A DNA stretch of 38,677 nt, from positions 1 to 38,677 of the forward strand of contig DASSML010000169.1 in NCBI GenBank assembly GCA_035688895.1, in the 5' to 3' direction. The notes beneath the pieces are model-generated. The model did no database searches. It saw only the letters and a list, made by a program, of their open reading frames with translations, and was not told the origin of the DNA. Origin of the DNA: Gemmatimonadales bacterium (lineage in GTDB: Bacteria > Gemmatimonadota > Gemmatimonadetes > Gemmatimonadales > GWC2-71-9). Made by a program: the position numbers and the translations under genes. How positions within the stretch are numbered: the first letter of the stretch is position 1; every line of letters starts with the position of its first letter. This document shows positions 19,001-23,060 of the stretch, piece by piece.

Positions 19001-19542
19001 TCATCGAGTGCATCGTCACCACCCTCGATCCGGCGGGCGCGGCGAACTTCGCCCCCATGGGGGTGGAGTGGGGAGAGGATCACATCGTCCTCAAGCCCTT
19101 TCTCGAGACTACGACCTTTCGCAACGTGGTCGCGAGCCGCTCGGCGGTGGTCAACCTGACCGATGATGCCATGCTGCTCGCCCAGGGCGCGATCTCGAGT
19201 CCGCAATTCCCTGCCTTCCCGGCCGAAGTGGTGCGGGGCGTCGTCCTGGAAGCGGCGTGCTCCTGGCGCGAGCTCGAGATCGTGTCCATCGACGACACGC
19301 CGCCCCGCTCACGGGTGGAGACCCGGGTGGTGCACCGGGGCTTCCGCCGCGAGTTCATCGGGTTCAACCGGGCCCGCCACGCGGTGCTGGAGGCGGCCAT
19401 TCTGGCGACCCGGACTCACCTCATTCCCAAAGCCGAGATCGCGGCAGACTTCGCCCGCCTTCAGGTGATCGTGGAGAAGACGGCCGGTCCGCGCGAGCGG
19501 GAGGCGATGGCGATGCTCGCGGAGTATGTCGCCGGCAAATAG
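18997..19542 (+). CDS. DUF447-family protein (H4MPT-biosynthesis-associated)
   Basis: GTG 18997 overlaps the pabA stop (GTGA). IIECIVTT.D..G..N.APMGV and TTFRN fit the DUF447 pattern as recalled. Context is conserved with mptG. Confidence 0.55.
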   Translation: MIIECIVTTLDPAGAANFAPMGVEWGEDHIVLKPFLETTTFRNVVASRSAVVNLTDDAMLLAQGAISSPQFPAFPAEVVRGVVLEAACSWRELEIVSIDDTPPRSRVETRVVHRGFRREFIGFNRARHAVLEAAILATRTHLIPKAEIAADFARLQVIVEKTAGPREREAMAMLAEYVAGK

Positions 19543-20500
19543 CGTCTTCGTCGAGGCCGCCGCGCGACTGCACTTCGGAGTACTCGATCTCCGGGGCAGT
19601 CTGGGGCGGCGATTCGGCGGGCTCGGCGCCGCCATTCCGTCCCCATCGCTGCTGCTCGAGGCGGCCCCCGCTTCGGCGGTGAGCGCGACGGGGCCCGACG
19701 CCGAGCGGGTAGACGAGTTCGCCCGGCGATTCCTGGCGCACCATGGCCTGAGCGGGGGTGCCCGCCTCACGCTCCACCGAGCCATCCCGCCGCACAGCGG
19801 TCTCGGGTCGGGGACCCAGCTGGGGCTGTCGGTCGCGCGGGCACTGGCCGAGCTGCACGGGCTCCCGATCGACGCTCCGACCCTGGCCACGGCAGTATCC
19901 CGAGGCCGCAGGTCGGCTATCGGGACCTGGTGCTTCGCCTATGGCGGGTTCATCGTCGAGGGGGGGCACCGTCCTCAGAAGGGGACAGTCGCGCCGTTAT
20001 TGGGACGCTACGAGGTCCCGGAGAGCTGGCGCTCCGTGGTCGCGGTGCCGCCCGGCGAGCCCGGATTGAGCGGCGAGGCCGAATCTGCCGCCTTCGAGCA
20101 GCTTCCCGCTCCTCCCGAGCGCGACCCCGAGCGGGTGGCCCACTTGGTGCTCATGCAGTTGCTACCGTCCCTGGTCGAGGGAGACCTGGCCGGATTCGGG
20201 GCGGCACTAACGGCGATTCAGCGACTTACCGGCGCGTGGTTCGCACCCTCGCAGGGCGGGATCTTCGCCCCGGGCCTGGGGCCCGAGTTGATCGCACGAA
20301 TGGCGGAGTGGGGCGCGGCCGGCGTGGGCCAGAGCTCGTGGGGGCCTGCGGTCTATGGGCTGGTCGATGGCATCGATCAGAGCCGGGCGCTGGCCGAGCG
20401 CGTCCGCGCGTCGCTCGGGGGGCGAGGGCAGGTTTTCGAGGGGGGATTCGCCCGGCACGGGGCCCGTGTCGGGTGGGGTGGACCCCCCACCCAACCCTGA
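19526..20500 (+). CDS. mptG: Beta-ribofuranosylaminobenzene 5'-phosphate (beta-RFAP) synthase, GHMP-kinase fold
   Basis: RLHFGVLDL.G..GRRFGGLG near the N-terminus and HSGLGSGTQLGL (GHMP motif) are typical of MptG. 324 aa. Confidence 0.8.
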   Translation: MSPANSVFVEAAARLHFGVLDLRGSLGRRFGGLGAAIPSPSLLLEAAPASAVSATGPDAERVDEFARRFLAHHGLSGGARLTLHRAIPPHSGLGSGTQLGLSVARALAELHGLPIDAPTLATAVSRGRRSAIGTWCFAYGGFIVEGGHRPQKGTVAPLLGRYEVPESWRSVVAVPPGEPGLSGEAESAAFEQLPAPPERDPERVAHLVLMQLLPSLVEGDLAGFGAALTAIQRLTGAWFAPSQGGIFAPGLGPELIARMAEWGAAGVGQSSWGPAVYGLVDGIDQSRALAERVRASLGGRGQVFEGGFARHGARVGWGGPPTQP

Positions 20501-20529
20501 TTGACAGTTCAATTTTGGGGCTGTATACT
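20501..20529 (+). promoter_or_regulatory. Near-consensus sigma70-type promoter TTGACA-N17-TATACT
   Basis: TTGACA at 20501-20506, an exact 17-nt spacer, and TATACT at 20524-20529. It begins on the base after the mptG stop codon. The expected TSS is near 20535-20537. Confidence 0.6.
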
Positions 20530-20535
20530 GGCCCA

Positions 20536-21179
20536 CCTAAGCCTCCCGTAATCGGCGACTTGGCCGGTTTCCGATTGGGAGCTTCGCGCTCGAAGTAGCA
20601 AGCGCGCTGCGATACCCAGAAGGATCCGGTAGTGGCTCAGGTGGTTTCACCAGGGTGTGAACCGCCTCCCCAGCAGCAGTCCTTTACAGACACACATTGC
20701 TGTGCAGCGGCGTCGCTGAGGGGTTTGATGGGCCTATTCCCGCTGGCCGACACCAATACTTGGCATTCTCCCGATCCGTGGGGCGGTCGCGCGGTCGCAG
20801 TGCGCGCGCGAGCCTGCCGCACGGATATCGTCTGGTGGTGGCGTACCGCCCTGCCGATCGTACACCCGACCGCTGGCTTGCCCACTCCATCCGACGACAT
20901 TTCCCACTTCCATCATCAGGCGCGGCGCCCCCGCACCCAACCGCAGGCTCGCTTGGCGAGCGCGGCTCGGTGCATCCGGCGGGCGGCGGCCCAGCGTAAC
21001 TCCCGTTGGACCGTCGCCGCAATCGCCGAACGCGGGCCCCCGCCCGCCGCCTCACGCTTCACGTAGTCGGCGCCTCCCGGCCCGCGGCACTCGTGGTCCC
21101 GTCGCCGAACCGGCGTCCGCAGCAGGTGGCACCCGAATGCAGTAGAGCAGTAGAACCACCCTTCATCCTGAGGTCAGTT
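20536..21179 (+). other. ~645-nt apparently non-coding leader or candidate structured RNA upstream of xoxF
   Basis: No convincing ORF. Track ORFs here are low-complexity with weaker third-position GC than neighbouring genes. Local hairpins include 20543-20581 (CTCCC/GGGAG plus AATCGG/CCGATT) and 20582-20595 (CTTCG-cgct-CGAAG). No Rfam family was recognised by eye. Confidence 0.35.
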
Positions 21180-23060
21180 ATGAACCGCTTTACCCAGAAG
21201 GTGCTGTCCGGCGGTATTGCGGCGGGGCTGAGCGTAGCCTTCGCCGTGTCCGCCAACGCCCAGGCGGCTCGTACAGGGGCATGGACCCTGGACGGGAAAG
21301 AGGGCGAATGGACGATGACCGGCCGTGACTACAGCCTGCAGCGGTTCAGCCCGCTCAAGCAGATCACGACCTCCAACGTCGCCGAGCTGCGGCCGGTCTG
21401 GTCCTTCTCCACCGGCACGCTCCGGGGCCACGAGGGCAACCCCCTGGTGGTCGGGAACGTGATGTACGTCAACACGTCCTTCCCGAACATCGTGTACGCG
21501 CTCGACCTGTCGAAGCCCGGCGCGCCGCAGATCTGGAAGTACGTGCCCAACCAGTCGCCCGACGCGATTCCAATCGCCTGCTGCGACCTGGTGAACCGCG
21601 GCACCGCGTACAGCCCGAGCGGGAAGGTCTACATCCAGGCCCTCCAGGGCGAGCTGATCGCGCTCGACGCGAAGACCGGCAAGGAGCTGTGGAAGGCCAA
21701 GCACCCGGATAAGTCCAACGCCGGTGTCGAGGCCAACGGCTACAAGCAGGGCGCTACCATGACCAACGCCCCGATCTACATCAAGACCAAGTCGGGCAAG
21801 GAAATGGTCATCGCGGGCATCTCCGGCGGTGAGTTCGGCGTTCGCGGCCGCGTCTCGGCCTTCGACGCCAACAGCGGCGCGCACCTGTGGACCGCCTACA
21901 GCACTGGTCCGGACAGCGAAGTCCTGATCGACGGCGACGCGAATGCCAACTATCCGTCGCACAAGGGCAAGGACCTCGGCGTCAGCACCTGGCAGGGCGA
22001 CGAGTGGAAGCGGGGCGGCGGCACCACCTGGGGCTGGTACTCCTACGACCCCGAGCTCGACCTCTTCTACTACAGCGTCGGCAACCCGGGCACCTGGAAC
22101 CCCGATCAGCGGCCGGGCGACAACAAGTGGTCGATGACCATCTTCGCGCGCCACCCGGACAACGGTCACGCCGCCTGGGCGTACCAGATGACCCCGCACG
22201 ATGAGTGGGACTATGACGGCGTGAACGAGAACGTCCTGTTCGAGAACGGCGGCAAGAAGCTGCTCGCCCACTTCGACCGGAACGGCATCGCCTACACCGT
22301 CGACCGCACCAACGGTAAGGTCCTCGTCGGCAACGCGTACGGCCCGATCAACTGGGCCAAGAACGGCGGCACCGGCACCCCGGTTGAGGGCGTCGTGTCG
22401 ACCGGCGTCCCGGTCAAGGATCCGAAGTACGGCACCTCCTCGAAGAAGAACGGCGAGGGCATCTGCCCGGCCGCCATCGGCTTCAAGGATCAGCAGCCCT
22501 CGGCGTACTCGCCGATCACCGGCCTCTTCTACGTCCCGGCGAACCACATCTGCATGGACTATGAGGGCGTCGAAGTGAAGTACACCGCCGGTCAGCCGTA
22601 CGTCGGCGCGATCGTGCGGATGTTCCCGGGCCCCGGCGGCCACCGTGGCCGGTTCATCGCCTGGGATCCGATGAAGGGTTCCGTGGTGTGGGAGATCAAG
22701 GAGAACCTCGCGGCGTACGGCGGGGCGCTCACCACGGCCGGCGGGCTCGTCTTCTACGGCACCATGGAAGGCTGGCTCAAGGGCGTCGATGCGAAGTCGG
22801 GCAAGGTCCTCTGGCAGTTCAAGACCCCGTCCGGCATCATCGGCAACCCGATGACCTACACCGGTCCCGACGGCAACCAGTACGTCGCCGTCTACTCCGG
22901 CATCGGTGGCTGGGCCGGCATCGGCGTAGCCGCTGGTATCGGCGCTGAAGATCCGACCGCCGGTCTCGGCGCGCTCGGCGCCTTCGGCGACGCGGGCAAC
23001 TTCTCGACCCAGGGCGGCGTCATGACCGTCTTCGGGCTCAAGAACATGGCCATGAAGTAA
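21180..23060 (+). CDS. xoxF: Lanthanide-type PQQ-dependent methanol dehydrogenase (XoxF)
   Basis: ATG 21180 has GAGG 7 nt upstream, and a signal peptide ends ...VSANAQA. The protein aligns by eye along its whole length to MxaF/XoxF: FSTG.LRGHEGNPLVV, vicinal ACCDLVNRG, GGGTTWGWYSYDP, DNKWSMTIFA, ICMDYEG and DPTAGLGALGAF. TPHDEWDYDGVNE carries Asp (22215-22217) where Ca-type MxaF has Ala. No mxaI follows. Confidence 0.92.
   Translation: MNRFTQKVLSGGIAAGLSVAFAVSANAQAARTGAWTLDGKEGEWTMTGRDYSLQRFSPLKQITTSNVAELRPVWSFSTGTLRGHEGNPLVVGNVMYVNTSFPNIVYALDLSKPGAPQIWKYVPNQSPDAIPIACCDLVNRGTAYSPSGKVYIQALQGELIALDAKTGKELWKAKHPDKSNAGVEANGYKQGATMTNAPIYIKTKSGKEMVIAGISGGEFGVRGRVSAFDANSGAHLWTAYSTGPDSEVLIDGDANANYPSHKGKDLGVSTWQGDEWKRGGGTTWGWYSYDPELDLFYYSVGNPGTWNPDQRPGDNKWSMTIFARHPDNGHAAWAYQMTPHDEWDYDGVNENVLFENGGKKLLAHFDRNGIAYTVDRTNGKVLVGNAYGPINWAKNGGTGTPVEGVVSTGVPVKDPKYGTSSKKNGEGICPAAIGFKDQQPSAYSPITGLFYVPANHICMDYEGVEVKYTAGQPYVGAIVRMFPGPGGHRGRFIAWDPMKGSVVWEIKENLAAYGGALTTAGGLVFYGTMEGWLKGVDAKSGKVLWQFKTPSGIIGNPMTYTGPDGNQYVAVYSGIGGWAGIGVAAGIGAEDPTAGLGALGAFGDAGNFSTQGGVMTVFGLKNMAMK

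Follow-up and report, generated by a model that had tools for sequence, protein, structure and literature searches.

Probable Control of xoxF by an Arrest-Peptide Upstream Open Reading Frame with an RGPP Motif in Gemmatimonadales

The xoxF gene encodes the most widespread methanol dehydrogenase, the flagship lanthanide enzyme, and to our knowledge its regulation is known almost only from Proteobacteria, via two-component systems. In the window analysed here, a stretch of 38,677 nucleotides (nt) from a Gemmatimonadales bacterium (positions 1 to 38,677 of the forward strand of contig DASSML010000169.1, GenBank assembly GCA_035688895.1), xoxF stands behind a long gap (20501–21179) that follows the gene mptG and raises the question of what this DNA does. 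A first-pass annotation, made from the sequence alone, found no credible open reading frame (ORF) in the gap and proposed that it was a long structured leader of xoxF, an independent non-coding RNA, or a decayed gene. Our analyses favour the leader reading over the independent non-coding RNA, in support of which nothing was found, and over the decayed gene; however, the main element of the leader is probably a translated upstream ORF (uORF) and not a structured RNA or riboswitch. The explanation that we consider probable is that the gap forms the leader of the xoxF mRNA and carries a uORF for an arrest peptide of the RGPP kind, which gates xoxF; in these soil Gemmatimonadales, xoxF would thus probably be switched by a ribosome parked in the mRNA leader. 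This explanation is based upon the findings that the residues E-R-G-P-P are the sole invariant feature of the uORF product, that this motif is avoided in the proteome, that the product has neither a predicted fold nor an export signal, and that the motif is met again in unrelated mini-uORFs that precede xoxF in sister genera.

The gap is a conserved feature of the genus to which the window belongs (labelled g1 in our comparisons). A DNA search of 40 relatives located it in 20 of the 24 same-genus genomes, always between mptG and xoxF and with a length of 450–795 nt, and the arrangement of promoter, gap and xoxF is also kept in other genera. Conservation in an alignment of 18 loci is concentrated in four islands, viz. 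the promoter with the first 45 transcribed bases, a region at ~20640–20760 that includes the string GAGG(G/A)(G/A)-N4-6-ATG, a short block at ~21025–21045, and the final 60 nt ahead of xoxF. A search of the window's own genome for a further copy of the gap returned only the gap itself. The second and third islands overlap the following features:

20728..21066, + strand: uORF of 112 codons plus TAG, MGLFPLADT...VWWW...RWTVAAIAERGPPPAASRFT followed by the stop, identified by its conserved Shine-Dalgarno (SD) sequence and ATG and by frame preservation
21028..21042, + strand: Glu-Arg-Gly-Pro-Pro (ERGPP), the predicted arrest site, at uORF codons 101–105, identified by invariant alignment columns

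The SD sequence GAGGGG (20718–23) precedes the ATG at 20728, both are conserved, and this ATG opens a frame of ~100–140 codons in every relative. Because open frames come cheap at 70% GC, the coding status of the uORF was tested in four ways. Nine close relatives were drawn from genome and metagenome collections; the insertions and deletions that they show within the uORF are all multiples of 3, while those in its 5' untranslated region (UTR) and past its stop measure 1, 2, 7, and 8 nt. The position of the DNA motif GAR-CGN-(GGN/AGY)-CCN-CYN was compared with that of the conserved ATG in 34 non-identical loci of the genus; in 30 of the 32 loci that bear the motif it is in frame with the ATG without an intervening stop, at 18 distinct ATG-to-motif distances. 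The ratio of nonsynonymous to synonymous differences per site (pN/pS; Nei-Gojobori, ten close pairs) is 0.74 for the uORF frame, with values below 1 in 10 of 10 pairs, as compared with 0.96–1.11 in four of the five remaining frames and 0.82 in one antisense frame, for which a lowered value is expected as the antisense of a coding region. A profile search of 5.8 billion proteins retrieved 123 predicted proteins at E<=1e-3, all of them described as "hypothetical" and devoid of a Pfam domain, most of which are 100–122 amino acids (aa) long. Another candidate, a minus-strand ORF at 20684–21055, was rejected, its start not being conserved and its open stretches differing in position between loci. 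These results indicate that the gap is not gene-free, contrary to the initial description, and that the uORF is maintained as a coding sequence. The decayed-gene reading also loses its footing here, with the frame maintained and no match for the ORFs of the gap in searches of Pfam and NCBIfam.

The most distinctive property of the uORF is found near its end. In an alignment of 95 sequences of the uORF family, the only invariant columns are E101, R102, P104, and P105, and G103 is present in at least 90%; the motif reads ERGPP in 91 of the 95 members and ERSPP in the other 4. The median distance from the end of the motif to the stop is 7 residues (range 2–12 in ~89 of 95). All five of its codons vary synonymously across loci (GAA/GAG; CGC/CGG/CGA/CGT; GGG/GGC/GGT/GGA; CCN; CCN), and the sole amino-acid replacement is that of Gly by Ser, with AGT or AGC codons; hence, the constraint falls on the peptide and not on the nucleotides. 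Taking the geometry from RAP-P structures (PMC10951233), the predicted P-site codon is CCC at 21037–39 and the A-site codon is CCG at 21040–42.

The genome itself behaves as though this motif were costly, and yet the motif is invariant in the uORF. Among 2201 confident ORFs (0.79 M residues), a gene set that is crude but conservative, the observed/expected ratio is 0.35 for RGPP and 0.38 for RAPP, in comparison to 1.49, 1.22, and 1.46 for the tetrapeptides GRPP, PPGR, and AAPP, respectively. In addition, 13 of the 22 RGPP/RAPP matches lie within the first ~40 residues of over-long ORF calls and are probably upstream of the true starts. Among RAPP-like cores, RGPP has been described as giving the most robust arrest, refractory to elongation factor P and compatible with numerous N-terminal contexts; in many bacterial phyla no tetrapeptide is more strongly excluded than RGPP, which is enriched near the C-terminus of small (100–200 aa) proteins encoded upstream of functionally diverse genes, and seven Streptomyces peptides of this kind do stall ribosomes (Fujiwara et al. 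EMBO J 2025, PMC12992588). The uORF combines an R-(A/G)-P-P core, a C-terminal position of this core in a small ORF (<300 aa), a variable N-terminal part, selection on the core at the amino-acid level, co-directional placement upstream of another gene, and a motif that the proteome avoids. It thus has, at the level of sequence, the characteristics of a RAPP/RGPP-type arrest peptide, and it is predicted to stall ribosomes.

The distribution of the long uORF is narrow. When 300 genomes of the order were searched with its profile in six frames, it was detected in 15 of the 21 sampled genomes of the window genus, with one marginal match elsewhere. However, the motif itself extends beyond this genus. 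In the 24 non-g1 regions compared, each the 900 nt before a xoxF orthologue of another genus, ERGPP was observed 5 times against ~0.1 expected, along with one RAPP; for reference, ERGPP occurs 34 times in the six frames of the entire 3.47-Mb genome. In several genera of the same family, a promoter of the form TGATTGACAG begins at the mptG stop and the gap, of only ~200 nt, contains a mini-uORF, the lengths of which in sister genera range from 10 to 23 codons. In g19 (L063, L065, and L073), the TGATTGACAG core is followed by a TATAAC -10 box and then by mini-uORFs of 19–23 codons of the pattern M(V/A)VA(C/R)WERGPP... (viz. MVVACWERGPPAVARVSGF and its stop, MAVACWERGPPDVHG... and its stop, and MAVARWERGPP...). 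The promoters of g13 and g26 have a TTGACAG core and -10 boxes other than that of g19. The mini-uORF of g13 reads MTLVSCSERGPPMRR..., and that of g26 (L064, G098) is a ten-codon leader, MTLTSCRAPP, which ends exactly at RAPP 72 nt before xoxF and is the shortest version found. The genus g30 has a long form, ...VFPFAATTW...APIERGPPAHCS followed by a stop; in one of its genomes (G115:C28:163253-168072; L057, L058), two xoxF copies lie ~4 kb apart, and upstream of copy b ERRTP is found in place of ERGPP.

These comparisons also bear on whether the uORF encodes a free-standing small basic protein, e.g. an RNA/DNA-binding or chaperone-like partner in methylotrophy, with ERGPP as a functional C-terminal motif and xoxF merely the next gene. 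In agreement with such a product, the ORF is maintained, its N-terminus MGLFP(L/F)A is conserved while the codons vary synonymously, residues W37, R75, and I83 are nearly invariant in the 95-sequence alignment, and the window's own clade holds the length at 112–113 aa down to 58% identity. However, the family as a whole (median length 110 aa) has a mean column identity of only 25%, and its members, which are basic and rich in Pro, Ser, Arg, and Trp, evolve fast outside the motif and almost neutrally in the middle. AlphaFold2 supplied with the 95-row alignment returned no secondary structure, with a predicted local distance difference test (pLDDT) score of 58 and a predicted template modelling (pTM) score of 0.12, and the protein is accordingly predicted to be disordered. 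The only invariant residues spell the very motif that the proteome avoids, and sister genera keep a frame of just 10–23 codons that cannot be a folded protein. We therefore hold the free-standing protein to be quite improbable, and return to the arrest-peptide explanation. The elements that it involves, apart from the uORF, are as follows:

20501..20529, + strand: predicted sigma-70-type promoter, TTGACA-N17-TATACT, matching the consensus at 11/12 positions
20841..21098, + strand: C>G bubble, rut-like in composition, covering the middle and 3' portions of the uORF and the beginning of the spacer, from a 78-nt C-minus-G profile
21067..21179, + strand: spacer of 113 nt from the uORF stop to xoxF, near-identical in close relatives
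~21120–21179, + strand: conserved block C, the xoxF translation-initiation region, kept across genera
21180..23060, + strand: xoxF, a lanthanide-type pyrroloquinoline quinone (PQQ) methanol dehydrogenase gene, the presumed controlled gene, identified by TIGR03075 and PDB matches

In the mechanism that we propose, a strong and conserved sigma-70-type promoter at the mptG stop would start a transcript at ~20536 and, after a 190-nt 5' UTR, ribosomes would translate the 112-codon uORF (20728–21066). With ...Glu-Arg-Gly-Pro on the P-site tRNA (CCC 21037–39) and the A site holding Pro-tRNA, peptide-bond formation would be blocked in a manner resembling RAPP/RGPP/SecM-type arrest peptides, and the ribosome would park seven codons before the uORF stop. 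The parked ribosome and the queue behind it would then cover the 3' part of the uORF, which is rich in C and poor in G, and this cover would decide the continuation into xoxF, 113 nt downstream, either at the level of transcription (most likely by Rho-dependent termination) or through mRNA stability. A constitutive role is just as possible, for instance against polarity or in stabilising the 5' end of the mRNA of a very highly expressed gene.

The near-consensus promoter noted earlier directly after mptG was recovered in a consensus scan of 19500–22000, where it is the sole promoter-like site in these 2.5 kb (0.1 sites are expected from shuffles), and the string TGATTGACAG...TGTATACT is invariant across ~33 related loci. 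It begins at 20501, on the base that follows the mptG stop codon (TGA, 20498–20500), and predicts a transcription start at ~20536. In the entire 3.47-Mb assembly the pattern TTGACA-N17-TATA[ACT]T is found at 2 sites, the second of which is G000:C436:22646 (+), TTGACACTGGTGCACTCGGTGCATATACT. The lower GC content reported for the 5' end of the gap is likewise present, at 0.565 for 20500–20699 as against 0.66–0.76 in the surroundings.

Whether this promoter also serves xoxF is a separate matter. The transcript from 20536 might instead be a small RNA or mRNA in its own right that stops short of xoxF, with xoxF having an activator-dependent promoter of its own in block C that employs the tandem octamer or the CACCC repeats found there. 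Response-regulator control of xoxF is known in other methylotrophs, and block C is very strongly conserved: close relatives have an almost identical 113-nt spacer despite differences at synonymous sites of xoxF, the octamer GCAGTAGA is present twice in tandem at 21139–21154 throughout the genus, the string CACCC(T)TCAT...GAGGTCAG is conserved across genera, and the block has direct repeats and a -10-like box (TAGAAC/TAGAAT). Against a separate promoter, the consensus scan detected no promoter-like site in block C. A sigma-54 promoter at 21127–21141 was considered and rejected: the sequence TGGCAC-N5-TGCA has the spacing GG-N9-GC, one base short of GG-N10-GC, and is absent from the L009, L016, and L018 clades. 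Furthermore, no intrinsic terminator was seen between the uORF and xoxF in the window, and just one weak site among the 34 g1 loci. In g19 the promoter is only ~190 nt from xoxF and the mini-uORF stop is 43–60 nt from the xoxF ATG, leaving no room for a second promoter, so that only a single promoter could there serve both the mini-uORF and xoxF. An independent transcript is thus very unlikely in our estimation, and we infer from the sequence comparisons that the uORF and xoxF share one transcript. In L044 (G125), a locus of the same genus, the uORF (...LTFERSPPLCVS...) has no stop codon and continues in frame into xoxF (MNRFAQKVV...); a ribosome that escapes the stall at this locus would read through the xoxF start.

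As to how a stalled ribosome may act upon xoxF, the classical possibility is the unmasking of a SD sequence, as in SecM. In the minimum free energy (MFE) structure, the xoxF SD GAGG (21170–73) faces CCUU (21160–63), and 21142–21148 pairs with xoxF codons 4–6 (21187–21193) in a long imperfect hairpin; taken together, the two pairings enclose the start region of xoxF in a weak hairpin. The MFE of 21020–21210 has a z of -0.64 relative to dinucleotide shuffles. In partition-function folding of 30 loci, with the ribosome-covered stretch either forced single-stranded or left free, the predicted accessibility of the xoxF SD was ~0.38 both with and without the ribosome footprint. The partners of the SD are local (CCUU at 21160–63 and the hairpin of 21142–48 with codons 4–6). 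With the accessibility unchanged, SD unmasking was rejected as the output, a result that tells against the classical variant of our explanation.

The base composition of the uORF points to a different output. The excess of C over G in 78-nt windows reaches +0.28 at 20841–20948 (99.8th genome percentile) and +0.20 at 20991–21098 (98th genome percentile), and in 19 of 22 loci such a bubble, ranking at the 99th percentile or higher, occupies the corresponding position, where the sequence is barely alignable. Rho is encoded in the genome on contig C173 (684 bits). A second Rho-like ORF, G000:C144:1464-2588 (-), scores 453 bits, below the TIGR00767 cut-off, and lies inside an open frame of 645 aa. 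Judged from this analysis, the output is probably Rho-dependent and CruR-like (see below). In g19 the mini-uORFs of L063 and L065 are followed, 40–60 nt before the xoxF ATG, by a small terminator-like hairpin and T-run, each only weakly above shuffle expectation, and that of L073 by a short T-run only; the mini-ORF of L063 is spanned by a larger hairpin, the 3' arm of which shares bases with the 5' arm of the terminator. These sites suggest that the same logic operates in g19 with an intrinsic terminator.

The remaining part of the gap, between the transcription start and the uORF, contains the following features:

20536..20727, + strand: 5' UTR of the uORF, ~190 nt, with conserved blocks and helix P1
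20530–20572, + strand: conserved block A, from the 18-locus alignment
20640–20666, + strand: helix P1, GGYGG.../...CCRCC, with covariation
20664–20670, + strand: anti-SD-like CCUCCCC
20705–20718, + strand: hairpin CAGCG-GCGU-CGCUG, which abuts the SD

The control element may alternatively be sought in this RNA, as a structured, riboswitch-like leader (blocks A and B, 20536–20727) for which the uORF is a passenger or an RNA-gated translational coupler. No other nucleotides of the gap are as well conserved as blocks A and B, and P1 covaries, with 3 pairs that have compensatory changes on both sides; this is the one helix of the 5' UTR for which covariation, proposed beforehand as a check, was obtained. 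Within the proposed fold 85.8% of cells are paired, in comparison to 37–57% in slid controls, and the uORF SD is able to pair either with the upstream CCUCCCC or with codons 4–5, alternatives that would permit a switch. However, the MFE of 20536–20745 (z -0.60) is no better than chance relative to dinucleotide shuffles, so that the several stable hairpins described previously are borne out neither here nor at the xoxF end of the gap. A three-way junction based on the pairing of CCUCCCC with the uORF SD was tried and set aside, its support being weak: 9–13 of the 27 sequences are unpaired at two of its four pairs. A covariance-model scan of 20300–21400 against Rfam (E<=10) recognised no family, in accord with the earlier failure to discern a known riboswitch or non-coding RNA signature; its sole match was GP_knot1, with 15 bits (E=6), the gathering score being 67.7. 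Lastly, the long 5' UTR is specific to g1, while the ERGPP frame is common to genera with a 5' UTR of ~45 nt. For these reasons (genus specificity, the lack of a Rfam match and of a thermodynamic signal) we rate the 5' UTR as secondary. It is unlikely to be the control element itself, although it may form a second layer of control on uORF initiation and as an added layer is compatible with the arrest-peptide explanation.

Several observations weigh against this explanation and should be considered alongside it. The pN/pS of 0.74 represents only weak constraint, and the codon-position GC of the uORF (GC2 ~0.67) is atypical of genes. The 95 members of the family have no signal peptide, transmembrane (TM) segment, or conserved Cys/His sensor motif: no 19-residue window reaches a Kyte-Doolittle value of 1.6, and a signal-like h-region is seen in 2 of the 95 only. 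Four genera (g16, g17, g33, and g36) carry merely decayed versions of the motif (WMVVERSSG, PLVERLRD), and ~5 of the 34 loci of the window genus have no motif or have it out of frame (L004, L005, L006, L037, and L041). These losses and decayed versions imply that the device, while widespread in the family, is dispensable. The xoxF genes of a second family have no motif upstream. In L037/L047 (G163) and L005 (G009), the DNA that encodes ERGPP is displaced by 2 nt from the frame of the conserved ATG; for G163, a 6-contig assembly, the frame shift could be a homopolymer sequencing error as well as a real loss.

The closest parallel to the window uORF among known systems is with CruR (Bp2923, DUF2946) of Bordetella pertussis, a uORF ahead of bfrG in which a RAPP arrest three residues before the stop keeps Rho off a C>G bubble reaching out of the uORF into the intergenic region, until copper relieves the arrest and termination follows (Roy et al. 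2022, PMC9426467). Both systems have a poorly structured uORF protein of ~110–145 aa with R-x-P-P a few residues short of the stop, a C>G bubble in the 3' part of the uORF that continues into the intergenic region, in a genome that encodes Rho, and a downstream gene of metal-dependent periplasmic or outer-membrane function. Unlike CruR, the window uORF lacks a DUF2946 (PF11162) match, a CXXC motif, and an export signal, and has RGPP in place of RAPP; membership in the CruR/DUF2946 family was therefore rejected, the Pfam and NCBIfam searches having given no match and no Cys pair being conserved.

The uORF also resembles ApdA, ApdP, ApcA, and the seven Streptomyces lividans peptides, which have a C-terminal R-(A/G)-P-P after a variable sequence (Sakiyama 2021, PMC7897499; Morici 2024, PMC10951233; Fujiwara 2025, PMC12992588). 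Like other RAPP/RGPP peptides it is small, directly upstream of and co-directional with the gene that it is presumed to regulate, and built upon a motif that is excluded from the proteome. Most of these known peptides, in contrast, possess a signal peptide or TM segment and act as monitors of Sec/YidC or metal factors, whereas the window family is cytosolic, stands before a PQQ methanol dehydrogenase gene, and has an invariant Glu before the Arg that is specific to it. A role as a monitoring substrate of Sec/YidC (as for SecM, MifM, VemP, and ApdA/P) was rejected, as the family has no localisation signal. With SecM of Escherichia coli (RAGP arrest, control of secA), the uORF shares a Trp ~8–9 residues upstream of the arrest point (RRWMLPTVERGPP; window RWTVAAIAERGPP), but SecM unmasks the secA SD and is released by the pull of Sec on its signal peptide, and neither feature is seen in the window uORF.

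In sister genera the element is similar to TnaC, being a leader peptide of 10–23 codons that in g19 is followed by a hairpin and T-run before xoxF; unlike TnaC, which employs W12, D16, and P24 and free Trp, its core is RGPP. These short versions imply that any sensing would take place within the exit tunnel, as in TnaC. A long shot, in our judgement, is that the ERGPP leader is a nascent-peptide sensor inside the ribosome, whose arrest or release responds to a small molecule connected with the function of XoxF, for instance lanthanide in the cytoplasm, PQQ, or a metabolite derived from methanol/formaldehyde; if so, it would be the first translational "lanthanide/methylotrophy switch".

A full-text literature search for xoxF together with uORF or arrest-peptide terms gave no paper containing xoxF among those listed, and PQQ/methanol dehydrogenases were not found among the downstream classes in those portions of the main text and supplements of PMC12992588 that were available to us. 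If our explanation is correct, the arrest leader adds a post-initiation level of control of xoxF in the Gemmatimonadales, an abundant and barely studied soil group, and brings both central C1 metabolism and cytosolic peptides that have no export signal into the range of RGPP/RAPP arrest peptides. Its main value would be as a concrete handle on the control of xoxF outside of the Proteobacteria. The natural series from 112 codons down to 10 (MTLTSCRAPP) also constitutes a ready-made dissection of the nascent chain needed for arrest, and the gap should not be treated as non-coding in annotation pipelines.

The genes on the two sides of the gap are assigned by their domain and family matches. The upstream neighbour is:

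19526..20500, + strand: mptG, beta-ribofuranosylaminobenzene 5'-phosphate synthase (beta-RFAP synthase), identified by GHMP kinase domains and TIGR00144

The product of mptG has the Pfam GHMP kinase N and C domains and matches NCBIfam TIGR00144 with 158 bits, above the cut-off. The gene that starts at 21180, directly downstream of the gap, is xoxF as first annotated: its product matches TIGR03075 with 632 bits, and the closest PDB structures to it are those of the lanthanide XoxF enzymes 4MAE, 6OC5, and 6DAM.

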